Notes: a model not told the origin generated them from the letters alone. A stretch of DNA of 64,000 nt from Gammaproteobacteria bacterium (GCA_965221955.1 CBDCTA010000029.1:128001-192000); one strand, 5' to 3'; shown: positions 8,438 through 60,890, numbered from the stretch's first letter. Program-made: numbers and translations.

Positions 8438-8776
8438 CTATCCAGTGCTCCACGATCTTGGTCTTTTCATTCCTGCAATTTTGCAAGCTTGTTTGACGTA
8501 CCCATATGGAAATAATTTAAATAACTGTTTTTTTGCTTGCTTTCCATAACTAAGCTCATCAGAAATATATTTAATTACGTAGCGAGAGTCTGGAGCGGTT
8601 AAGTGATCATTGTAATAATCACGCATGAATTGAATGATTTTCCAATGCTCAGGTGAAAGATCTAGCTCTTCCTTGCTAGCAAGAACTCTAGCGTATGCCT
8701 CATTCCACTCTTCTGGGTCAATTAGATAGCCTTCATTATCAATGTTAATAGGCATTGAGGATATCTGCTGAGACAT
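8438..8776 (-). CDS. TusE/DsrC-family protein lacking the C-terminal cysteine (RspA-like)
   Basis: DNEGYLIDPEEWN, LSPEHWKIIQFMRDYY, LFPYGYVKQACKIAGMKRPRSWSTG. Confidence 0.85.
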   Translation of the reverse strand: MSQQISSMPINIDNEGYLIDPEEWNEAYARVLASKEELDLSPEHWKIIQFMRDYYNDHLTAPDSRYVIKYISDELSYGKQAKKQLFKLFPYGYVKQACKIAGMKRPRSWSTG

Positions 8777-8962: not shown

Positions 8963-9331
8963 TTACCTGCAGAGCACATCATCACGATGCTTTTCGATAG
9001 CATCGATAACTTTTGTGGTCTGATTTTTACCAATATTAAGGTCAGATAAGGACTGTTTTACACATTCCATCATGGCATCAACATGTTCATCATTAAGTCC
9101 TTCTTCTACTGCCCCTTTGTGCGCTCGACGCATATCTTTTCCCAAATATAAAGACGGGCCGCCAAAAATGTAGGTTAAAAAAGCAGTCATTTTTCTTTGT
9201 TGTGATTCAACATCTGTTTTTTCAAAAAAATCCTTAATGCGGTCATCATTTAATATATGCACATATAAATAATATGCTGCCTTTTCAACAGTTTCTTTCC
9301 CGCCAAGTTCATCATAAAGGGTTTGATCCAT
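8963..9331 (-). CDS. Group I truncated haemoglobin (GlbN-like)
   Basis: TLYDELGG, DDRIKDFF, FLTYIFGGPSLYLGKDMRRAH. Confidence 0.9.
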   Translation of the reverse strand: MDQTLYDELGGKETVEKAAYYLYVHILNDDRIKDFFEKTDVESQQRKMTAFLTYIFGGPSLYLGKDMRRAHKGAVEEGLNDEHVDAMMECVKQSLSDLNIGKNQTTKVIDAIEKHRDDVLCR

Positions 9332-9415: not shown

Positions 9416-10090
9416 TTAAAACTTCCTACCTATGCTTACAAAAAATACCCATGGGTCGATATCGATATCCACGTCTCTGCGTACGCCATTGGTTTTCAAT
9501 GTAGCATCGGCATCAATGTCTACATACCAAAGTGCAGTGTTAAAAAACCAATTTTCATTTATAGAAATATCTGTGCCGATTTGGGCAGCTAGCCCCCAAG
9601 AGTCATCAATATCAAGTTTTGTGTCACCGCCAAGCGCGGTTTCGAGCGAGGAAGAAACGTCTTCATCTGGAAAATGTGTGTAATTAAACCCTGCTCCAAT
9701 ATAAGGATGGAATTTTGCGGATCCATTAAAATGATACTGTAGTGATAAAGTAGGTGGAAACACATCTACATCTGCAATTTTTCCTAATGCGCTTAGACCA
9801 TCCTTGCCTTTTAAATCATGTGTAGATGGGGTAACACCTAAAAGTTCAATTGCAAATCTCGAAGTCAGCATATAACCGATTGTGAAACCTAATGTGACGT
9901 CATTATCAACACCCACTTCGGTGTTAGGTATTCCATCCACATCATTACTACTGTCGTTGGGCTCTATAAATGCGGGGCCGATTCTGGCAAACCAAGTGCC
10001 TTGATCGTAGGCATAACTTGCTGGTGTGATAGAAATGAAAATTATTAACAATAAAAATTTATAATTATTTAAGTGCGCTATTTGGATCAT
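9416..10090 (-). CDS. ompW: OmpW/AlkL-family outer-membrane beta-barrel
   Basis: Signal peptide, PPTLSLQYHF, FHPYIGAGFNYT, DSWGLAAQIG, IDPWVF and a terminal Phe. Confidence 0.88.
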   Translation of the reverse strand: MIQIAHLNNYKFLLLIIFISITPASYAYDQGTWFARIGPAFIEPNDSSNDVDGIPNTEVGVDNDVTLGFTIGYMLTSRFAIELLGVTPSTHDLKGKDGLSALGKIADVDVFPPTLSLQYHFNGSAKFHPYIGAGFNYTHFPDEDVSSSLETALGGDTKLDIDDSWGLAAQIGTDISINENWFFNTALWYVDIDADATLKTNGVRRDVDIDIDPWVFFVSIGRKF

Positions 10091-10187
10091 TATTTATTTC
10101 ATGCTTTTTTGTTAAAGATTTAAAAATTAATTACTCTATGAATTTAATATTCGATTAAAAACGTAACAAAGCTAGTCATATGTTTTG

Positions 10188-10201
10188 CTGACTTGTGTCA
10201 G
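10188..10201. promoter_or_regulatory. Variant FNR-type palindrome CTGAC-N4-GTCAG upstream of ompW
   Basis: GCTGAC-TTGT-GTCAGC read directly. Confidence 0.6.
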
Positions 10202-10297
10202 CTTGAAACACTTTATGGGCTTTTATATCTAAATAGGAAGGGCGGTAGTTAGAACAATTTAATCCTAAAGAAAGTCATTACAGCAGAAAAAATTGAT

Positions 10298-10319
10298 GTA
10301 ACTGATACATATCAGTTAC
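10298..10319. promoter_or_regulatory. Variant FNR-type palindrome CTGAT-N4-ATCAG upstream of sirB2
   Basis: GTAACTGAT-ACAT-ATCAGTTAC, with perfect 9-bp arms. Confidence 0.65.
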
Positions 10320-10391
10320 GTTGATGCTATGTTGAGTAGACGATGTTTTAAGTTTGAAAAATTAAACGAATATTAAATGTAAAAAATATCG

Positions 10392-10766
10392 ATGTATGAA
10401 TTAATAAAAGCCATTCATGTTGCTACTGCTATCTTTTCGATTAGTGGATTTGTGATTAGAGGAATATGGATGATGAGCTCGTCTAGTCTATTAGAAAACA
10501 GGTGGGTAAAAGTAGTGCCCCATGTAAATGACACTATTTTATTAACAGCCGCAATAATATTAGTAATATTGAGCGGGCAATATCCGGGTCCAGCTACATG
10601 GATTAACGCAAAAATAGTTGCCTTACTAATTTATATTCTACTAGGGACTGTTGCGTTAAAGCGCGGTAAAACCATACAAATCAGAATTATTGCCTGGATA
10701 TCAGCGATTCTAATTTTTATGTATATACTGGTAGTTGCAAGCAGTAAGACGGTATTACCTTGGTAA
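10392..10766 (+). CDS. SirB2-family membrane protein
   Basis: KAIHV..SISGFVIRG, PHVNDTILL, WINAKIVALLIYILLG. Confidence 0.85.
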   Translation: MYELIKAIHVATAIFSISGFVIRGIWMMSSSSLLENRWVKVVPHVNDTILLTAAIILVILSGQYPGPATWINAKIVALLIYILLGTVALKRGKTIQIRIIAWISAILIFMYILVVASSKTVLPW

Positions 10767-10782
10767 GCGTCTAAGTACGGGC

Positions 10783-11520
10783 TTAACTCAAACTATAGTC
10801 ACCTTCAGCAACGCCACATAATTTTTCGTGATCTAGAATTGCTATCTTCTTTCGGTCTGCACTAAGTATTTTATTTTCTTTAAATTTTGAGATAAGTCTG
10901 CTGACTGTTTCATCAGCAAGACCTAAATAATTACCAATATCGTAACGGCTCATAGTGAGGTCAAATTCATCTGCAGAATAACCTCGAGCTTTAAAACGAC
11001 CAGAAAGATTAATTAAAAATGTTGCTAATTTTTGTTCTGCATTTCGTCGTGCTAGCAAAAGTAACATTGTATGGTCTTTTGTTATTTCATCACTGATTAA
11101 GCTTAATAATTGTTGTTGCAACCCAGGGATCTTTACACATAAAACGTTTAACTCATCGATGGGCAGTTCACATATTGTGGCGGTGTCAAGAGCAATGCCT
11201 GAGCAACTGTGAATCTGATTGTCTAGGCCATCTAGACCTAGAATTTCTCCTGGGAGGTGAAACCCTAAAACCTGTTCTTCACCGTTTTTTGCGGTCGTGA
11301 AAGTTTTAACTGAGCCAGAACGTACCGCATAAATACATCCTGATTTTTCACCTTGGTTAAATATAGATTCATTTTTTTGCAGTAATCTGCGCTGCTGGAT
11401 GACATCATCTAAAGAATGTAAGTCACTATTATTGAGCCCTCTTGGAAGACATAGCTCAACTAATGAGCAGTTCTTGCAAGATGCTTTCAGGGATCTAAAG
11501 TTGATTTTTTGCTCTTCCAT
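10783..11520 (-). CDS. fnr: FNR/ANR-type O2-sensing transcription factor
   Basis: CKNCSLVELC plus ICE Fe-S ligands, GFHLPGEILGLD, and HTH MSRYDIGNYLGLADETVSR. Confidence 0.9.
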   Translation of the reverse strand: MEEQKINFRSLKASCKNCSLVELCLPRGLNNSDLHSLDDVIQQRRLLQKNESIFNQGEKSGCIYAVRSGSVKTFTTAKNGEEQVLGFHLPGEILGLDGLDNQIHSCSGIALDTATICELPIDELNVLCVKIPGLQQQLLSLISDEITKDHTMLLLLARRNAEQKLATFLINLSGRFKARGYSADEFDLTMSRYDIGNYLGLADETVSRLISKFKENKILSADRKKIAILDHEKLCGVAEGDYSLS

Positions 11521-11636: not shown

Positions 11637-11650
11637 CTGATATAGATCAG
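11637..11650. promoter_or_regulatory. Variant FNR-type palindrome CTGAT-N4-ATCAG
   Basis: CTGAT-ATAG-ATCAG in the divergent fnr/GST intergenic region. Confidence 0.65.
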
Positions 11651-11685: not shown

Positions 11686-11699
11686 CTGATGTGGATCAG
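11686..11699. promoter_or_regulatory. Variant FNR-type palindrome CTGAT-N4-ATCAG
   Basis: CTGAT-GTGG-ATCAG, 49 nt from the previous box. Confidence 0.65.
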
Positions 11700-11852
11700 A
11701 ACTTATATTTTCAGATCCTTATAATCTCCTCCTTCAAGCACTCTTGTTGAATTGCTAAAATCCTCTATAGAGTTTGGGGTATTTAAAAAAAAGAGCAAGA
11801 AACAAGTAACTATTTTAAAAAGTCACTGCAGAACTATTTACGGAGATTGATT

Positions 11853-12443
11853 ATGGGTTTATTTAGTAAGTCAAAACCACAAGCAAGCGGAAAACCGAAG
11901 CTGACATGTATGCAAGGTGATGCCGCATCGTATAAGTGCATCTTTTTAGCGTCCTATCGAAAAATACCTGTTGATATTGAATGGGGTGAGCCATCAACTT
12001 TAGACGATAAAATGTCAGAGTCTTTGAACATGTCAAATCTGAATCGCTATCCTTGTATTGAAGATGGTGATTTCACAATTTGTGGGGAGAGTGCTGTATT
12101 AACCTATCTAAATATTAAAGGCCGTACTCCTACGATCCATCCTAGAAAAGCGAGAGTACTGGCAATGCAACAATATTGGATACAAGTACTCAATACTAAA
12201 TGTACTGCAGAAGAAAATTTTCCTGCGGTATTTGAACAGCTAGACCAAGCCCTTCAGGGAAATAAATATATTGTTGGCGAACTTTCGCTTGCGGATTTTC
12301 ATTGGGCAGGCGCATTCAAAGCCATAGAAGAAAGTGGCAATGCCTTAGATATTTCTAAATATGAAAATGTCACTAATTGGCTAGCGCGAATGAAATCAGA
12401 GATTTCTGAATATGACATTAAAAGTGAAAAGGTTGCTGCATAA
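11853..12443 (+). CDS. Glutathione S-transferase-like protein
   Basis: RYPCIEDGDFTICGESAVLTYL, LDQALQGNKYIVGELSLADF, NVTNWLARM. GGAG RBS. Confidence 0.8.
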   Translation: MGLFSKSKPQASGKPKLTCMQGDAASYKCIFLASYRKIPVDIEWGEPSTLDDKMSESLNMSNLNRYPCIEDGDFTICGESAVLTYLNIKGRTPTIHPRKARVLAMQQYWIQVLNTKCTAEENFPAVFEQLDQALQGNKYIVGELSLADFHWAGAFKAIEESGNALDISKYENVTNWLARMKSEISEYDIKSEKVAA

Positions 12444-12487
12444 CAGCACTTATGAAAGTTTAAGTATTAAATTATAGGTAAAAAATT

Positions 12488-13282
12488 ATGACTGATTTAT
12501 TTGAATTGATGGCTGAAAAATCTGGAGGCCAAAGTAATTCGGGGTATGGTGCATCGGGTGAAATGAAAAAAACACAGTTTGTATTAGAACTTATTGGCTG
12601 TCCTGCTGATGCTGATACTCTTAAATGTGTAATCACTGCCGCGGAACAAGGTATGGAAATGAATTGTTATAGCATAATCACCGATGCTGTGAGTAATCTT
12701 GATGAATGTATTGCTGAACTATCCCCATTATCCATTACACCATGTTTAAAAGAAGCTGATTTTTATGCATGTGGGAGTGATGCAATCACAGCCTTTGCAG
12801 ATGCTAGAGGATTAGGGTATGCGCTGACACCACGCAATGCATCGTTAGCTGCTATGCAAAATTATTGGGTGGATATTGCAAACTCAAATGTTGCGCCTCT
12901 TGTCAATCAGATTGTTGATGAAGTGTTTGTGAAGCAATATGAAGATTCATCTCATGCTGCAAATCAAGATGTAATTAACTCTGCTGGCGATGACTTGAGG
13001 ATCTTTTATGATGCTTTGGATAAGCAACTTCAGGGTAATAAATACATTGTCTGTGACAAATATACTTGGGCAGATCTTCATTGGACTGCTTATACACATT
13101 TATTAGATGCTGCAGGATGTAGCGTATTAATAAATGAAAGGACAAACGTCAAGCAATGGTTTGATCGTATCAAAACAAGAAAAGCGCAGTGTGGGCAAGA
13201 TGAAGTTGCTTACGAAAATTTACCTAATGCTGAAGAGATTAAACAAGGGAAGCTTAAATCTGTAGTAATTGCTGATTATTAA
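12488..13282 (+). CDS. Glutathione S-transferase-like protein (paralogue of the upstream gene)
   Basis: ITPCLKEADF..GSDAI, LDKQLQGNKYIVCDKYTWADLHW, NVKQWFDRIKTR. Confidence 0.8.
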   Translation: MTDLFELMAEKSGGQSNSGYGASGEMKKTQFVLELIGCPADADTLKCVITAAEQGMEMNCYSIITDAVSNLDECIAELSPLSITPCLKEADFYACGSDAITAFADARGLGYALTPRNASLAAMQNYWVDIANSNVAPLVNQIVDEVFVKQYEDSSHAANQDVINSAGDDLRIFYDALDKQLQGNKYIVCDKYTWADLHWTAYTHLLDAAGCSVLINERTNVKQWFDRIKTRKAQCGQDEVAYENLPNAEEIKQGKLKSVVIADY

Positions 13283-13321
13283 AACAATAAAGAATTATTA
13301 ATTGTAGAAGAGGAAAATAAA

Positions 13322-14509
13322 ATGCATAAATTTTTAGTAAATATTCGGTATTTTGAAACACCGATTTTAATTTTCTTGACCTTAGTTGGTCTTGTCATTG
13401 GCGGTCCGTGGGTGTGGACGGGTGTTGTCTTATTGGTTGCATCGATCATTGTCGATTGGGCAACGAGTGCCAGCTCATTATTTCACTGTGAGCCAGCAGG
13501 TAGAGACGAAAACGGTGATTTGTATGGAATCGATTGGTTCTTGAAAGTCATGATGTGGATACAATATCCCGTGTTTGTAATGCTACAACTTGCTTTGGTA
13601 TGGCGTGTATACGAATTTTCATCAGGAAATGCATTTGGACCAAATGAGTTATTCGGTATTACGATTCACCACGGTGTTACCGGATGGGAAATGTATGGTG
13701 CAACGGTATCTGCCGGCATCTACATGGGCCTAGGCATTATGTTTGGTCATGAGCTTGCTCATACTAAAGGACCTACATTCGTTTTAGCACGTTGGATGAT
13801 GGCATTAAGTGGTATTGCCCATTTCTGCTATGCGCATGTATACAACCACCATCTAGAGCTAGGTCACCAGGACGACCCTGCTACCTCACCGCGAGGACGC
13901 AACATCTATAAGCATTACCTTCTTTCTCACTTTGGACAATCACGTTTTCTATATGTAATGGAACAACAACGTTTGAAGAAAAAAGGTGTGCCTTTTATCT
14001 CATGGCAGAATCGTTGGATACGTGGATACGCAATGAGCTTGCCCACGATATTTATGTTCTGGTTTGCTGCCGGGTGGTGGGGCCTAGGTGTAATGGTCGG
14101 TTCTTGGGTCATCTCAGCCTTTGAATTAGAAGTGCTCAATTATTTAGAGCACTATGGCTTGATTCGTGAAAAAGGTCAGCCAATTGATTACCACCATTCT
14201 TGGGATGTAGGTGAATCTCCATTTACACAATGGGGCTTCATTGAGATTGGTCGACAAGCAGACCATCATGATAGAGGCGAAACGCATTTCTGGGAGTTAG
14301 AAGATTGTGGAGCGCCTGATACGGGTTATGGATATTACGCCATGCTTGCTTTGCTTCTTGTACCACCAGCGTGGGAAGCGTTTATAAAACCACGTCTCGC
14401 AGACTGGGATGAAAATCGTGCGAGTGAAGGCGAGCGCAAAATTGCTGCAAGGATGAACTATCTTGCCGGCTGGCATGACATGCCGCTATGTGATGCAGAC
14501 CCTAAATAA
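13322..14509 (+). CDS. Membrane diiron monooxygenase, AlkB/XylM family
   Basis: His boxes HELAH, HVYNHH, NYLEHYG and QADHH, DPATSPRG, and a XylM-like C-terminus PRLADWDENRASEGERKIA..AGW. Confidence 0.85.
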   Translation: MHKFLVNIRYFETPILIFLTLVGLVIGGPWVWTGVVLLVASIIVDWATSASSLFHCEPAGRDENGDLYGIDWFLKVMMWIQYPVFVMLQLALVWRVYEFSSGNAFGPNELFGITIHHGVTGWEMYGATVSAGIYMGLGIMFGHELAHTKGPTFVLARWMMALSGIAHFCYAHVYNHHLELGHQDDPATSPRGRNIYKHYLLSHFGQSRFLYVMEQQRLKKKGVPFISWQNRWIRGYAMSLPTIFMFWFAAGWWGLGVMVGSWVISAFELEVLNYLEHYGLIREKGQPIDYHHSWDVGESPFTQWGFIEIGRQADHHDRGETHFWELEDCGAPDTGYGYYAMLALLLVPPAWEAFIKPRLADWDENRASEGERKIAARMNYLAGWHDMPLCDADPK

Positions 14510-14530
14510 ATAAAGAATTAGGAGATAAGA

Positions 14531-14743
14531 ATGTCAAAAGTACAACAAGCGTTACTGGCTATTGCAGCATTTACAGGTGTTATGGGTTTTATCCTTTATT
14601 CACTTGGAATTGGTGACCATCATTTTAATCCATTGTGGGCACTTGGAACTGCAGTCATCTTTTTAATCATTTTGTTAATTGATGTGTGGATGTTTTTTGC
14701 AATATCAGGCGAAGATGCATTTAAATGGGATCCTGATTCTTAA
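14531..14743 (+). CDS. Small two-TM membrane protein
   Basis: AGGAG RBS, two hydrophobic helices, last gene before a terminator. Confidence 0.75.
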   Translation: MSKVQQALLAIAAFTGVMGFILYSLGIGDHHFNPLWALGTAVIFLIILLIDVWMFFAISGEDAFKWDPDS

Positions 14744-14763: not shown

Positions 14764-14799
14764 AAAAAGCCGCAGCATGAATTACTGCGGCTTTTTTTT
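14764..14799 (+). terminator. Rho-independent terminator
   Basis: GCCGCAG..CTGCGGC stem followed by T8. Confidence 0.85.
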
Positions 14800-19217: not shown

Positions 19218-19757
19218 ATGTCACAAATTCTAGATAAGTTGCATAAAGATCATACTAACTTCATTAAACTTCTGGAATTTTTAAAACAACAGTTACAACT
19301 TCTAAAAGAATACAAACACTCAGATCTCGAACTTATTTTAGATGCGATTAGGTACATGAAGGAGTACCCAGATCTCATCCATCACCCATTGGAAAATGTG
19401 GTCTTTAAATATTATTTAAAGCACCATAATAAAGTGTATGAAGAAGTCAATGACTTACTCCACGAGCATGATGAAATGCCTCGATTAACTGAAAAACTAA
19501 TTGAAATATTACAAGCTGCTTTATCCGACATGCCTCAAGAAAGGTCTCAGCTCTGTGCGTGTTTAGAAGAGTATATTGCTAAGCAAGTTGAACACATGAA
19601 TCATGAGGAAGTGAGTGTATATCCAGAAATAGATTCTGCGCTTAGTAAGCAAGAATGGCTTGAAATAAAGAGTGAATTAAAAGATATAGAAGACCCATTG
19701 TTTGGGGCGGAAACAAAAAAAATATATAAGGCTTTGTATCAACAAATCATTGGGTGA
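19218..19757 (+). CDS. Hemerythrin/HHE cation-binding domain protein
   Basis: LHKDH, HHPLE, LLHEH, EHMNHEE..VYP. Confidence 0.85.
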   Translation: MSQILDKLHKDHTNFIKLLEFLKQQLQLLKEYKHSDLELILDAIRYMKEYPDLIHHPLENVVFKYYLKHHNKVYEEVNDLLHEHDEMPRLTEKLIEILQAALSDMPQERSQLCACLEEYIAKQVEHMNHEEVSVYPEIDSALSKQEWLEIKSELKDIEDPLFGAETKKIYKALYQQIIG

Positions 19758-27863: not shown

Positions 27864-28676
27864 TTAAAAAACTGAAGAACTTAATTCATTTACTGCGGTT
27901 AGCATTTCAGTGTCATCGGTAAGCGCTTGAGAAATACAACTTGAGCAAGCAGTAACAGGGTTTACTCCACTAACAATTAATTTTCCTGCATGTACTAGTA
28001 GACGAGTACTTGCGCCTTCATCTAAACCGCTACCTTTTAGGTTACGAGTCATTTGTGCAAACTTAACAAGCTGTTTTGCAGTGTTGTTATCTACACCAGT
28101 TTCTTTTTCTACAATTTTTTGTTCGGTAGTTGCATCAGGGTAGTCAAATTCTAAAGCGACAAAACGTTGGCGCGTACTTTGTTTTAAATCTTTTAAAACA
28201 CTTTGATAACCAGGGTTATAGGAAATTGCCATACAAAATTCGGGTGGTGCCTCGAGTAATTCACCTAATTTTTCCATCGGCAATACGCGTCGATCATCAC
28301 AAAGAGGGTGTATCACTACGGTCGTGTCTTTGCGTGCTTCGACAATTTCATCTAAATAACAAATGCTGCCTGTGCGTACGGCACGAGCAAGTGGACCATC
28401 TACCCAAACGGTTTCACCACCAGTTACTAAGTAGCGCCCTATGAGATCAGATGCAGTTAAATCATCGTGGCATGAGACGGTAATGAGCGGGCGTTTGAGT
28501 TTCCAACCCATGTATTCCATGAAACGTGTTTTCCCGCAACCAGTAGGGCCTTTTAAAAGAACAGGCAATTGGTTTTTATAGGACGACTCAAACACATTGA
28601 TTTCATCACCTATAGCCTCGTAATAAGGCTCATCTTTTACGAAGTACTCTTCGGGCTTAAAGGATTTAGCTTGCAT
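27864..28676 (-). CDS. CbbQ/NirQ/NorQ-family AAA+ ATPase
   Basis: [51 protein letters not shown]. Confidence 0.92.
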
Positions 28677-29903: not shown

Positions 29904-30386
29904 ATGCCTACTTTCGTATATATGACTCGCTGTGATGGTTGTGGTCATTGCGTTGATATCTGCCCTTCAGACATCATGCACATCGATACTACAACTCGAC
30001 GTGCTTATAACATTGAACCAAACATGTGCTGGGAGTGTTACTCCTGTGTAAAGGCTTGCCCACACAATGCGATCGATGTTCGTGGTTACGCTGACTTCGC
30101 ACCCCTTGGTCACTCAGTGCGTGTAATTCGTGATGAGGAGAAAGGTGTTATCGCATGGCGTATTAAATCACGTAACGGTAAAAAAGATATGAATCTATTG
30201 GCGCCGATCACCACTAAGCCATGGGGTTCGGCAACTCCTCAGTTGAAAGACGAGCCCGCTCCAAGTGATGAGATGCGTAAAAGTCAGTTGCTATTCAACG
30301 AGCCAAAATATATTCGTTTAGATGATGGTGACATCCACACGCTTGAATCAAACGGCTTGGAGATGAAAGAAGGGGTGTACTACTAA
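29904..30386 (+). CDS. aprB: Adenylylsulfate reductase beta subunit
   Basis: MPTFVYMTRCDGCGHCVDICPSDIM, CWECYSCVKACP. Confidence 0.97.
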   Translation: MPTFVYMTRCDGCGHCVDICPSDIMHIDTTTRRAYNIEPNMCWECYSCVKACPHNAIDVRGYADFAPLGHSVRVIRDEEKGVIAWRIKSRNGKKDMNLLAPITTKPWGSATPQLKDEPAPSDEMRKSQLLFNEPKYIRLDDGDIHTLESNGLEMKEGVYY

Positions 30387-32269
30387 TGTCTTATAAAACT
30401 ATTGTTGAAGACGGTATCGATATTCTAGTTGCTGGTGCCGGTATGGCTGGTACAGGTGCCGCATTTGAAGCACGTTATTGGGGTCAAAATAAGAAAATTG
30501 TCATTGCTGAAAAAGCAAATATGGATCGCTCAGGTGCAGTTGCACAAGGGCTATATGCAATTAATACGTACATGGGAACCCGATTTGGTGAAAATAACCC
30601 AGAAGATCATGTTCGTTACGCACGCATCGATTTGATGGGCATGGTTCGTGAAGACTTGCTGTTTGATATGGCACGACACGTAGATTCTGCAGTACACCAA
30701 TTTGAAGAGTGGGGTCTGCCACTCATGCGTGACCCTAAGACAGGTGCTTATCAACGTGAAGGTCGTTGGCAAATTATGATTCACGGTGAATCCTATAAGC
30801 CCATTGTATCCAACGCTGCAAAGAAATCTGCGGACGAAGTATTTAACCGTATTTGTGTAACTCATCTATTGATGGACGAATCACAAGAAAATCGTGTTGC
30901 AGGTGCTGTTGGTTTCAACGTTCGTACTGGTAACTATCACGTATTCAAATCTAAAACGGTTATTTGTGCAGCGGGTGGCGCTTCAAATATTTATAAGCCA
31001 CGTTCAGTGGGTGAAGGTGCAGGTCGAGTTTGGTATGCACCATGGTCATCAGGTTCAGCTTATGGTTTGATGATTGGTGCGGGCGCCAAAATGACGCAGA
31101 TGGAAAACCGTATTGTATTAGCACGTTTCAAGGACGGTTATGGTCCTGTAGGTGCATATTTCTTGCATCTCAAAACCTACACGCAGAACGGTTTAGGTGA
31201 AGAGTATGAATCAAAGTGGTGGGAACAAACACAAGAAATGGTGGGTAAGGAATACTTAGACCCAGAAGTTTCGCATAGAACGCATCGTCCAATTCCAACT
31301 TGTTTACGTAATCATGCGTTTATCTCTGAAGTAAATGCTGGTCGTGGCCCGATTCACATGGTAACCATGGAAGCGTTCCAAGATCCTCATCTTGAAGAGA
31401 TCGGTTGGCACAACTTCTTAGGTATGACTGTAGGTCAGGCAGTACTTTGGGCGGCTACAGATGTAGATCCTAAATACGAAAATCCTGAACTGACCACTTC
31501 AGAACCCTATGTTATGGGTTCACATGCAACCGGTTGTGGTGCATGGGTATCTGGTCCTGAAGATTTGTCTCCACCAGAATATTTCTGGGGCTATAACCGT
31601 ATGACTACGGTTGCAGGGTTGTTTGGAGCAGGTGATGCTGCAGGTGGAACACCACATGCGTTTTCTTCTGGTTCATTCACTGAGGGTCGATTAGCTGCAA
31701 AAGCGGCTTGTCAATACATTGATGATGGTAAGGCAGAAGGCATCAAGGTTTCTCAAGATCAGATTGATCGCCGCAAAGCGGAAATCTACAAGCCGATGGA
31801 ACATTACAAAATCTATCGTAATGAGATCACTGCAGGTTCTGTTAATCCTAATTACATCAACCCACGTCAAGGTCTCGATCGCTTGCAGAAGCTAATGGAC
31901 GAGTACGGCGGTGGAGTAACAGTGAACTATATGACCAACGAAAAGTTGCTCAACATCGGTTTGAAGAAAATCAAAACGCTGGAAGAAGATCTTGAAAAGA
32001 TTGCTGCAGAAGACATCCATGAACTATTACGTGCATGGGAATTGAAGCATCGTACGCTCGCTTCCGAAGCAGTATTGCAGCACACTCTTTTCCGTAAAGA
32101 GACACGTTGGCCGGGTTACTACTACCGTGGTGACTTTATGAAAGTGGATGATCAAAACTGGCATGTTTTGACTGTTTCTCGCCGTGATCCTGAAACTGGT
32201 GAGTACACCATGGAGAAGGCGCCTTGCTATCACTTAGTTGGTGATGAAGAGAAGCAAGCTGCTGCATAA
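30386..32269 (+). CDS. aprA: Adenylylsulfate reductase alpha subunit
   Basis: RSGAVAQGL, WQIMIHGESYK, RFKDGYGPVGA, FSSGSFTEGR, ETRWPGYYYR. Confidence 0.98.
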   Translation: MSYKTIVEDGIDILVAGAGMAGTGAAFEARYWGQNKKIVIAEKANMDRSGAVAQGLYAINTYMGTRFGENNPEDHVRYARIDLMGMVREDLLFDMARHVDSAVHQFEEWGLPLMRDPKTGAYQREGRWQIMIHGESYKPIVSNAAKKSADEVFNRICVTHLLMDESQENRVAGAVGFNVRTGNYHVFKSKTVICAAGGASNIYKPRSVGEGAGRVWYAPWSSGSAYGLMIGAGAKMTQMENRIVLARFKDGYGPVGAYFLHLKTYTQNGLGEEYESKWWEQTQEMVGKEYLDPEVSHRTHRPIPTCLRNHAFISEVNAGRGPIHMVTMEAFQDPHLEEIGWHNFLGMTVGQAVLWAATDVDPKYENPELTTSEPYVMGSHATGCGAWVSGPEDLSPPEYFWGYNRMTTVAGLFGAGDAAGGTPHAFSSGSFTEGRLAAKAACQYIDDGKAEGIKVSQDQIDRRKAEIYKPMEHYKIYRNEITAGSVNPNYINPRQGLDRLQKLMDEYGGGVTVNYMTNEKLLNIGLKKIKTLEEDLEKIAAEDIHELLRAWELKHRTLASEAVLQHTLFRKETRWPGYYYRGDFMKVDDQNWHVLTVSRRDPETGEYTMEKAPCYHLVGDEEKQAAA

Positions 32270-59822: not shown

Positions 59823-60890
59823 ATGACACATCAAGTTAACCTTAAATCTGGAAAATACAAATTCATGGCTGATGAACATGAATCGATATTAGATGCTGCA
59901 ATTCGTGCAGGTGTTCCGTTGAATTACGGGTGCAGTAATGGAAATTGTGGTTTGTGTAAAGCAAAGATAGTGTCAGGAAAAACTTTGCAGCTACGCAAGC
60001 ACGATTTTGTGATAGGTGACGCTGATAAAATTCAGGGTCACGCGTTAATGTGTTCGACAACCTGTCAAAGTGATCTGGTAATTGAGGCTGAGGTTGCAGC
60101 AACTGCAAGTGATATCCCAATACAAGAGCTTCGCGTCAAAGTACGTAAAATTGACCGTATTAGTGATGATTTGGTGATCATTACCTTGCAAGTACCTAGA
60201 AGTATGCGATTGCGTTTTATGGCAGGCCAATATATGCGCGTTTATGATGATCAACAACGCTCACATGAGTATGCGATTGCTAGTTGCCCATGCGATGAAA
60301 AACGTATTGAATTTCATGTTCGTAAGCTTGAAGAGGATACTTTTTCTCACATGGTCTTTAAGCAACTCAGTGTGGGTGATTGGTTAAATTTACAAGGTCC
60401 ATATGGCGACTTTGTAGTTGATGACAGTAGTGATGTTCCCATTGTAATGATTGCATTTGATACTGGGTTTGCAGCAATAAAAAGCTTATTAGAACATGTT
60501 ACTGCACAAGAAAAAGAGCGAGCCATTTTTCTATACTGGCTAGCTTGTGGGGCAGAGGGTTTGTATTTAAATAATTTGTGTCGTTCTTGGGCGGACGCAC
60601 TAGATGAATTGCATTATATTCCTTTGCACATAGACAGGAATGTTGATCAATTATTAGATAGCGAATACGAAGGTCTAGGTATTATTGAAGATAAGCTTGT
60701 CTCGTCATTACATCATATACAGAGCTTACAAAATGCAGAGGTCTTTCTAGTATCGCCCGAACCGATTTCTAAGCTGGTTAAGCAAATGCTTATGGCAGAA
60801 GGATTTCAATCCAGCCACATTCATCATGAAATCATTCGTGGTAATCCAAATTTACAATGCATTCATCCATCGGGTGTAGTTTATGATTGA
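59823..60890 (+). CDS. 2Fe-2S/FAD/NAD(P)-binding oxidoreductase (AscD/XylA-like)
   Basis: YGCSNGNCGLCK..MC, FMAGQY, IASCP, GPYGDF, DTGFAAIKS. Confidence 0.85.
   Translation: MTHQVNLKSGKYKFMADEHESILDAAIRAGVPLNYGCSNGNCGLCKAKIVSGKTLQLRKHDFVIGDADKIQGHALMCSTTCQSDLVIEAEVAATASDIPIQELRVKVRKIDRISDDLVIITLQVPRSMRLRFMAGQYMRVYDDQQRSHEYAIASCPCDEKRIEFHVRKLEEDTFSHMVFKQLSVGDWLNLQGPYGDFVVDDSSDVPIVMIAFDTGFAAIKSLLEHVTAQEKERAIFLYWLACGAEGLYLNNLCRSWADALDELHYIPLHIDRNVDQLLDSEYEGLGIIEDKLVSSLHHIQSLQNAEVFLVSPEPISKLVKQMLMAEGFQSSHIHHEIIRGNPNLQCIHPSGVVYD

Follow-up and report, generated by a model that had tools for sequence, protein, structure and literature searches.

The window analysed here, a 64,000-nt stretch of DNA from a Gammaproteobacteria bacterium (GCA_965221955.1, CBDCTA010000029.1:128001-192000), contains an operon of four co-directional genes on the plus strand (Table 1), which encode two proteins with the fold of glutathione transferases (GSTs), termed GSTa and GSTb, a membrane di-iron monooxygenase (MO) of the AlkB/XylM superfamily, and a small membrane protein. 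The four open reading frames (ORFs) are separated by gaps of only 44, 39 and 21 nt and are followed by a hairpin with a T tract, which confirms a preliminary description, made from the sequence of the window, of four tightly spaced genes that end in one terminator. Comparison with related loci has shown that the MO belongs to a separate clade, called the Q-family below, that the genes around it are conserved as a set, and that the family co-occurs with the methanethiol oxidase MtoX.

Table 1. Features of the window and the four MO genes of the genome; positions given without a contig name are counted from the first nucleotide of the window.
Feature	Position	Strand	Basis or remarks
GSTa, fast-evolving GST-fold protein, always first of the pair	11853-12443	+	ORF; Pfam GST_C, E 8e-7
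GSTb, GST-fold protein with conserved N- and C-terminal extensions, always second of the pair	12488-13282	+	Pfam GST_C, E 1.4e-7
MO (paralogue A), Q-family membrane di-iron monooxygenase (AlkB/XylM superfamily), clade A	13322-14509	+	Pfam FA_desaturase, trees; operon of the window
Small protein, 70 aa, two-helix membrane protein	14531-14743	+	Two hydrophobic stretches, synteny
Intrinsic terminator: GCCGCAG, 9-nt loop, CTGCGGC (7-bp GC-rich stem), T8	14764-14799	+	Read by eye
-10 hexamer TATAAT, perfect, no -35 match	11720-11725	+	Read from sequence
Proximal FNR-type box CTGATGTGGATCAG	11686-11699	.	Pattern search
Distal FNR-type box CTGATATAGATCAG	11637-11650	.	Pattern search
FNR-family oxygen-sensing regulator, divergent from the operon	10783-11520	-	NCBIfam NF008365 Fnr, 269.5 bits (cut-off 228)
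FNR-type palindrome CTGATACATATCAG between the OmpW and SirB genes	10302-10315	.	Pattern search
OmpW-family outer-membrane channel	9416-10090	-	Pfam OmpW, 4e-52
Truncated (bacterial-like) globin	8963-9331	-	Pfam Bac_globin, 7.7e-18; three genes upstream, opposite strand
DsrC-like	8438-8776	-	
Hemerythrin-domain gene after ccoP	19218-19757	+	
CbbQ	27864-28676	-	
AprB/AprA	29904-32269	+	
MO paralogue B	C26:24500-25636 (L087)		pnp-msrB-MO-GST0-reductase-small
MO paralogue C	C29:202077-203213 (L088), outside the window		MO alone, divergent from MerR-type regulator and fabA
MO paralogue D	C14:51375-52514 (L089:6376-7587)		48% identical, H-S-D-H-H, outside the Q-family

The operon and its predicted control

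The start of GSTa was set at the ATG at 11853; the longest ORF begins at a TTG at 11847, and the orthologues start with MGLF. Pfam recognizes only the C-terminal GST domain (GST_C) in the two GST-fold proteins of the window, and neither a Pfam nor an NCBIfam family matched the small protein. The terminator was missed by a consensus scan because this allowed loops of at most 8 nt.

The gene of an FNR-family regulator lies back to back with the operon, and its translation contains a C-x2-C-x5-C motif near the N-terminus plus a later cysteine in the sequence ICELP, which we take to match the cluster ligands of E. coli FNR. The intergenic region of 326 nt between this gene and the operon holds two perfect CTGAT-N4-ATCAG palindromes, the variant FNR boxes that had been noticed before, and a third copy falls in the upstream region of the OmpW gene. 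These three exact matches in the window compare with 0.06 expected from shuffled sequences, and nine matches are present across the 2.69-Mb genome. A palindrome of the form [CT]TGAT-N4-ATCA[AG] is also found in 14 of 17 orthologous fnr-GST intergenic regions. Downstream of the two boxes is the TATAAT hexamer, which was not listed by a promoter scan that demands a match to the -35 element. Because this perfect -10 hexamer lacks a -35 match, the promoter is inferred to be activator dependent. The center of the proximal box is located about 40 nt upstream of the predicted start site implied by TATAAT, and such a spacing (about 41 nt) is the architecture of class II FNR-activated promoters. Control of the operon by FNR is therefore plausible, as judged from the arrangement of boxes and promoter.

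A separate clade of membrane oxygenases with conserved partners

The MO matches the Pfam family FA_desaturase (PF00487) with an E-value of 6e-26 and 92 bits (cut-off 29.7), with the histidine boxes in order, and it also matches the two solved AlkB structures of Fontimonas thermophila, 8sbb (E 1e-25) and 8f6t (E 9e-24), with which it shares the fold and the motif order HELxH, H-x3-HH, NYxEHYG and x-x-D-H-H. Three of the iron-binding motifs, HELxH, AHxxxHH and NYLEHYG, are retained in the MO, whereas the last box reads Q-A-D-H-H, as had been stated in the preliminary description, and aligns with the HSDHH of both structures, so that a glutamine replaces the first histidine of H-S-D-H-H in AlkB and of H-I-N-H-H in XylM. 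This replacement is a property of the family and not of the single protein, being present as Q-x-D-H-H in 36 of 36 members of clade A, in 38 of 38 members of clade B/C and in 19 of 19 further relatives, including viral ones.

Overall similarity to characterised enzymes is low, with 27% identity to XylM of plasmid pWW0 and 29% over about 270 aa to Pseudomonas AlkB. Phylogeny was based on two maximum-likelihood trees (IQ-TREE quick search, with the Shimodaira-Hasegawa-like approximate likelihood ratio test, SH-aLRT, as the only support measure); the first omitted one partial sequence (L018) and eight with an internal stop (L035, L038, L043, L063, L064, L066, L067 and L073), and the second comprised a chosen subset of 48 rows, with V_L204 omitted for a stop. 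The Q-family forms a clade (SH-aLRT 98) outside XylM and AlkB, the MO of the window falls within subclade A (SH-aLRT 99-100), and a branch with a support of 100 parts it from the AlkB clade. Of the characterised enzymes, XylM is placed closest in the tree (SH-aLRT 89-92), but the branches are long, and the exact sister relation is therefore not secure. No NCBIfam model matched the MO, the alkane-hydroxylase and AlkB models included. The family thus is a separate clade outside both characterised groups. The Q-family is abundant: among the candidates scored, 939 database proteins belong to it at E<=1e-3, and 201 loci were collected from species-representative genomes. The hosts are mostly uncultured marine Gammaproteobacteria, i.e., Thiotrichales, Thiodiazotropha, Chromatiaceae, Arenicellales, 'Piscirickettsiaceae' and sponge-associated lineages, and some sources tag the relatives as 'alkane 1-monooxygenase'.

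The gene neighbourhood was compared in a core set of 37 loci (L001-L037) with an MO at least 65% identical to that of the window. The small protein follows the MO in 36 of them, and the exception (L029) stops at a contig edge. Of the 37 loci, 32 contain the GST pair, while in the five without it (L006, L009, L018, L023 and L029) the contig ends on the GST side, so that MO, small protein and GST pair are kept together in all 32 informative orthologous loci. The order of the genes is not constant, with GSTa-GSTb-MO-small in 11 loci, MO-small-GSTa-GSTb in 15 and MO-small/fnr/GSTa-GSTb in 6, and the retention of linkage despite rearrangement argues for a functional connection. The preliminary description had named as the outcome that would speak against its proposal a placement of the enzyme within characterised alkane hydroxylase or desaturase clades together with a GST linkage that is not conserved in other genomes. 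The opposite was found on both counts, and the pathway can therefore be called undescribed. Literature searches likewise yielded no paper describing the Q-family or an operon of GST and MO genes.

A reciprocal search seeded with a GSTb alignment gave 56 loci at >=38% identity. A GSTa-like gene lies just upstream of the GSTb relative in every one of these loci, and an MO gene is present within 8 kb in 38 of them, while 5 are truncated. The two GST genes thus form a fixed unit, which in most but not all cases lies beside the MO. Eight loci with 20-25% identity from Sphingomonadales and Caulobacterales (L340-L347) were set aside as generic GSTs.

In a tree of 94 GST-like proteins three orthogroups were resolved: GSTa, the first of the pair, GSTb, the second, and GST0, which is encoded beside the reductase gene of related loci. 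GSTa and GSTb of the window are 26% identical over 194 aa, and matches to the N-terminal domain GST_N are present in orthologues. The structure model of GSTb shows a full GST fold (predicted local distance difference test score 89.2, predicted template-modelling score 0.89; residues 15-29 are disordered), in which it resembles GSTs of the plant Phi class, which are closest, and of the insect Delta class. Foldseek ranks Phi-class enzymes of plants highest (5f06_A, E 3e-11, template-modelling score 0.81 by target length), and it also retrieves the non-catalytic GST-fold proteins FzlA (5nr1) and MglA-SspA (a heterodimer, 5u51). Conserved extensions at both termini are found in GSTb and GST0, which have a conserved C-terminal tail in common, and one cysteine in helix 1 is conserved across all three groups. 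The pair is probably an obligate a-b unit, perhaps a heterodimer, which may dock on the oxygenase system or handle a reactive thiol or aldehyde product.

Related loci reveal further partners. In Arenicellales, Thiodiazotropha and many others the MO gene adjoins genes for a XylA-type reductase (2Fe-2S ferredoxin, FAD and NAD domains), a truncated globin and GST0, and one genome (G145) has the row MO-globin-GST0-reductase-small-GSTa-GSTb on one strand. The small protein is kept even in distant clades (Kangiella, SAR86, OCS116 and Acidimicrobiales), and hence it is probably a core subunit, to judge by its distribution. A minimal set consisting of MO, a ferredoxin of the 2Fe-2S type of ~100 aa and the small protein, with neither GST nor globin, characterizes the distant subclade found in these hosts (L194-L202). 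In a sister subclade (L013-L017 and L036; also L324, L325, L332 and L336) an OmpW gene is located directly upstream of MO-small on the same strand. A separate observation is that an FNR-type box precedes the OmpW gene in four of the six loci L013-L017 and L036.

The preliminary description had remarked on the lack of rubredoxin and reductase genes. This holds for the operon, in which neither was found among the ORFs and Pfam matches, but the system as such is not devoid of a reductase, as the relatives carry a XylA-type reductase and a globin in cis. The electron donor of the operon would probably be supplied in trans. A single rubredoxin gene is present in the genome, about 455 kb from the operon, and a further protein with Fer2 and FAD domains is encoded at 59823-60890 of the window.

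The likeness to the xylene monooxygenase XylM/XylA of the TOL plasmid pWW0 extends beyond the membrane-bound FA_desaturase-fold hydroxylase and the reductase architecture of the relatives. The second histidine box of the MO has A-H-V, as in XylM, rather than the E-H-N of AlkB, and an outer-membrane channel for hydrophobic compounds belongs to the cluster, just as a FadL-type gene ends the xyl operon. The Q-family system differs in its additional components (an obligatory small protein with two helices, a truncated globin and as many as three GST-fold proteins), in lacking genes for benzyl-alcohol and benzaldehyde dehydrogenases, and in being tied to MtoX instead of aromatic catabolism. AlkB systems share an OmpW-family channel with the window, AlkL being encoded in the alk operon, whereas the adjacent rubredoxin gene of the AlkB reference loci has no counterpart, either separate or fused to the MO, in the operon or in the Pfam-annotated related loci (no rubredoxin was among the tblastn queries used for the remaining related loci).

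Co-occurrence with methanethiol oxidase and the candidate substrate

The distribution of the family was determined in an even sample of 401 Gammaproteobacteria, with E<=1e-60 as the threshold for membership and SBP56 scored in 400 genomes. Sixteen of the 401 genomes are family positive, and the SBP56 gene occurs in 45 of 400. It is present in 15 of the 16 family-positive genomes versus 30 of the 384 family-negative genomes (28 of 382 without two unpublished genomes), and the sole family-positive genome without it (G099) is only 80% complete. Among the 36 genomes with an MO of clade A, MtoX scores above the NCBIfam equivalog cut-off in 31, is in pieces in 2 and is represented by a fragment in 1, and 2 have none. 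In the genome under study, MtoX (764 bits, cut-off 650) is encoded in a cluster together with SCO1, MauG and peroxiredoxin genes, and a tetrahydromethanopterin formyltransferase gene is nearby. The genus of Methylophaga sulfidovorans provides a comparison at close range, as the same 3 of its 37 genomes carry both MO and MtoX and the other 34 carry neither, a pattern that is less open to the objection of kinship.

In several relatives the two genes are also physically linked. One genome (G012) has, on one strand, a PAS kinase, LuxR, MO, globin, reductase, MtoX, SCO1/MauG, SCO1, FrmA and FGH, where MtoX scores 783 bits (cut-off 650), the S-(hydroxymethyl)glutathione dehydrogenase FrmA 643 (544) and the S-formylglutathione hydrolase FGH 417 (282). 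A second (G187) has the row MO-GST0-reductase-small-x-MtoX-MauG, and in the clade to which Thiobacillus sp. 63-78 belongs, 4 of 7 loci have a true MtoX no more than 10 kb away. The island of M. sulfidovorans DSM 11578 comprises, within about 25 kb, MO-globin-GST0-reductase-small-FadL/TodX channel-globin, followed by PAS kinase-LuxR-GSTa-GSTb and then by SulP, SQR-like, PDO-rhodanese, peroxiredoxin, SCO1/MauG and MtoX genes. The same MO row, with MtoX 7.7 kb away, is present in another genome of that genus (G475).

Published transcript data for M. thiooxydans contain a corresponding set of genes. Transcripts raised during growth on dimethylsulfide (DMS) in comparison with methanol (Table S6, PMC6548844) include an 'oxidoreductase, NAD-binding domain' (618 on DMS versus 12 on methanol), glbN (601 versus 21), a 'membrane protein, aromatic hydrocarbon degradation' (1469 versus 18), mtoX (17350 versus 37 and 4064 versus 20), PDO-rhodanese (1097 versus 17) and sqrA (388 versus 11). 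By annotation, each of these items has its match in the M. sulfidovorans island. In the available excerpts of that paper, the Methylophaga genomes are described as having neither dmoA nor a DMS dehydrogenase, with the gene of the first step not known there; the first enzyme of DMS degradation is said to be still missing, and the induced desaturase is taken to serve membrane repair. Furthermore, a preprint on lucinids (10.64898/2025.12.05.692423) mentions a 'multicomponent DMS monooxygenase' in Thiodiazotropha genomes, which may bear on the interpretation given here.

We give about an even chance to the reading that the operon encodes a low-oxygen isoform of a monooxygenase for DMS or a methyl thioether that feeds MtoX. 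The hydroxylase, its two-helix membrane partner and the GST-fold accessory pair would form a multi-component membrane monooxygenase. Its electrons would most likely come from a XylA-type NADH:ferredoxin reductase whose gene lies at another place in the genome, and the truncated globin and the nearby OmpW-type channel would be probable helpers. The adjacent FNR regulator most likely switches transcription on at low oxygen, and the operon copy would therefore be the low-oxygen isoform among the four MO paralogues of the genome. Hydroxylation next to the sulfur of the most likely substrate, DMS or a closely related methyl thioether, would generate an unstable hemithioacetal that would decay to methanethiol and an aldehyde (formaldehyde in the case of DMS), and the methanethiol would then be consumed by the MtoX of the genome. 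The GST pair may be a heterodimeric accessory or product-handling unit and not a classical conjugating GST. The reaction would equal that of DmoAB of Hyphomicrobium sulfonivorans (DMS + O2 + NADH to methanethiol and formaldehyde, feeding MtoX), but the likeness is one of proposed function and not of descent. DmoA is a soluble flavin-dependent enzyme.

A more general proposition, which falls somewhat short of even chances, is that the Q-family represents the missing membrane enzyme that starts DMS oxidation in marine methylotrophs and sulfur oxidisers without DmoA. Its build would be new among membrane di-iron oxygenases and would combine a glutamine as an iron ligand, a two-helix subunit of its own, a truncated haemoglobin as supplier or sensor of oxygen, and a heterodimer of catalytically altered GST-fold accessory subunits; the window would contain its FNR-switched low-oxygen isoform, and the auxiliary gene carried by marine phages would be that of the hydroxylase alone. 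From the substrates listed in the preliminary description (alkene, methylated or organosulfur compound, or lipid), the organosulfur option has thus gained support.

It should be noted that several results weigh against an assignment to DMS oxidation. In the lineage of the window itself the linkage is missing, as no MO was found within 10 kb in any of 80 MtoX-centred loci (0/80), and the co-occurrence counts are not phylogenetically independent, so that related genomes overstate the independence of the cases. The supplements searched (with locus tags and five motifs) contained nothing that would confirm the induced MDMS009_226 of M. thiooxydans as a Q-family member by sequence, and the link to this gene rests on matching annotations and on the sister species M. 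sulfidovorans. According to the available excerpts of PMC6548844, Boden et al. 2010 had found no DMS monooxygenase activity in extracts of DMS-grown M. thiooxydans and had proposed a methyltransferase. The sole dedicated XylA-type reductase gene of the genome (C26, L087:9823-10903) consists of two overlapping ORFs in different frames. The small gene that follows it gives split matches, and a second mtoX copy (C28:134161-135372) holds an in-frame TAG; all three are either pseudogenes or products of assembly errors.

The GST-fold proteins add to these counterarguments. Thirteen of the 56 GST-pair loci have full flanks and no MO within 8 kb. The position aligned to the catalytic serine of Phi-class enzymes is an aspartate or variable, and the Glu-Ser motif for glutathione is found only in GSTa, while GSTb has Ser-Asp and GST0 Thr-Gly. 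In canonical enzymes the Glu-Ser pair binds the gamma-glutamyl group of glutathione, and canonical GSTs also differ from the present proteins in that the latter are always encoded as an a-b pair. Because the catalytic residue is not conserved and Glu-Ser occurs in one of three groups, the earlier suggestion that glutathione transferases handle the product is unproven. A glutathione synthetase gene is present in the genome, but a search of the 96.6% complete genome found neither FrmA nor FGH, and a glutathione-linked formaldehyde route was hence rejected as the reason for the GSTs at this locus.

Three alternative functions have to be weighed. Two further points against DMS oxidation lead towards lipids, since the identical-protein MO copy C (L088) is placed back to back with the MerR-type regulator gene and fabA, and phage MO copies are near class-3 lipase (Lipase_3) genes in 2 of 3 annotated viral loci. 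Acting on a membrane lipid or a fatty acyl chain, which it would hydroxylate or desaturate, the MO could serve to adjust or repair the membrane at low oxygen or during stress by sulfide, methanethiol or peroxide, with the GST-fold proteins dealing with products of lipid peroxidation. The Pfam family of the MO, FA_desaturase, the position of the operon next to fnr and cbb3 oxidase genes, and the similar reading that the M. thiooxydans authors gave to their induced gene in the available excerpts (PMC6548844) would all fit, yet we consider this explanation unlikely. The Q-family is closer to XylM and AlkB, which act on free hydrophobic substrates, than to any acyl-lipid desaturase found in the searches, and its partners, a XylA-type reductase and a FadL/TodX or OmpW channel, fit uptake and catabolism. 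Tight co-occurrence and co-linearity with MtoX and genes of formaldehyde oxidation would be odd for membrane housekeeping, as would be a presence in only 3 of the 37 genomes of one genus.

A different sulfur chemistry is slightly less probable still. S-oxygenation would convert DMS or methanethiol to a sulfoxide or sulfenate, or the substrate might be another thioether, e.g., methylmercaptopropionate; the GST-fold proteins would be thiol-disulfide or persulfide carriers, and paralogues A, B/C and D would differ in substrate. AlkB-type enzymes are known to sulfoxidise, the four paralogues of one genome have different neighbours, PDO-rhodanese and SQR-like genes lie in the Methylophaga island, and the helix 1 cysteine is conserved in all three GST groups. 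S-oxygenation would yield no methanethiol, however, and would leave the association with MtoX unexplained. Least probable of the three, and in our view improbable, is an oxygenase that acts on a hydrocarbon, alkene or isoprene, with an epoxide or aldehyde being detoxified by means of glutathione, i.e., the logic of IsoI/IsoJ, as had been suggested by analogy with the isoprene and styrene pathways. It could draw on membership in the AlkB/XylM superfamily, on the OmpW-family channel linked to the MO (the alkane importer AlkL is an OmpW-family protein), on the paired GSTs, which isoprene clusters also carry, and on the label 'alkane 1-monooxygenase' of some relatives. The analogy found no support: no alcohol or aldehyde dehydrogenase, CoA-transferase or beta-oxidation genes were found in the related loci (Pfam-annotated, or by tblastn with cluster queries), no NCBIfam alkane-hydroxylase model matched, the GSTs do not conserve their catalytic residue, and the family is associated with MtoX rather than with hydrocarbon genes.

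DMS is the main biogenic sulfur gas that leaves the ocean. Co-occurrence with MtoX, gene rows shared in some genomes and the match to the published DMS-induced set make the Q-family a concrete candidate for the first step of bacterial DMS oxidation in many marine bacteria. If this is true, thousands of genes in marine metagenomes that are labelled 'alkane monooxygenase' or 'fatty acid desaturase' would have to be re-read as markers of a DMS sink, and a sulfur-oxidising bacterium would keep an oxygen-regulated extra MO copy for micro-oxic conditions. The operon represents a conserved and hitherto undescribed membrane-oxygenase module, a variant within the AlkB/XylM superfamily in which a presumed iron ligand is changed and the partners are new, and the presumed glutamine ligand and the GST-fold and globin partners of a membrane di-iron oxygenase would be of interest for enzymology.

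Paralogues, genomic setting and viral copies

The four MO paralogues of the genome (A-D) have different neighbours in each case. Paralogue D is located between an ArsR-type regulator and an S-adenosylmethionine methyltransferase, and it retains H-S-D-H-H, the ancestral form of the last box. An additional observation concerns clade B/C, as five genomes (L087/L088, L041/L042, L047/L048, L071/L074 and L057/L069) each contain two MO genes of this clade that are 99.6-100% identical at the DNA level. One copy is accompanied by GST0-reductase-small, and the other is alone beside MerR-fabA. The identity spans just the ORF (about 1.15-1.25 kb), and the loci are unrelated. Because the copies are identical within genomes and yet differ between genomes, they point to a process that may be ongoing gene conversion.

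The preliminary description had placed the operon in a sulfur oxidiser at low oxygen. This is plausible in view of the divergent FNR gene and the boxes, and the DsrC, AprBA, CbbQ and hemerythrin genes of the window would support a sulfur-oxidising autotroph adapted to low oxygen; a rhodanese gene is also present in the window, while soxB was not found in the genome. Two genes on the other side of fnr may be part of the system. The globin of the window is likely the counterpart of the accessory of the MO system in relatives, and the OmpW channel is a candidate entry route for a small hydrophobic substrate. A 12-kb contig (C10) contains a globin gene (C10:1341-1706) that is 100% identical to that of the window and a CTGAT-N4-ATCAG box at C10:357, and it probably is a duplicate assembly of part of the window region.

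In one relative (L184, genome G271) a MEDS/DcmR-type sensor with a helix-turn-helix domain (9882-10826, minus strand) adjoins the MO-globin-reductase row; regulators of this type are known from the C1-halide metabolism of methylotrophs. Q-family oxygenase genes were also found on 201 IMG/VR contigs of up to 109 kb, with 54-59% identity. The viral MO is alone in all 80 loci kept (L204-L283), accompanied by none of small protein, ferredoxin, GST and globin. The three annotated viral loci resemble the auxiliary-gene islands of phages, with genes for phosphoribosyl pyrophosphate synthase, a class-3 lipase, haem synthesis, an HNH endonuclease and a cyanophage outer-membrane-like protein, and the viral sequences branch at several points within the clade B portion of the tree.

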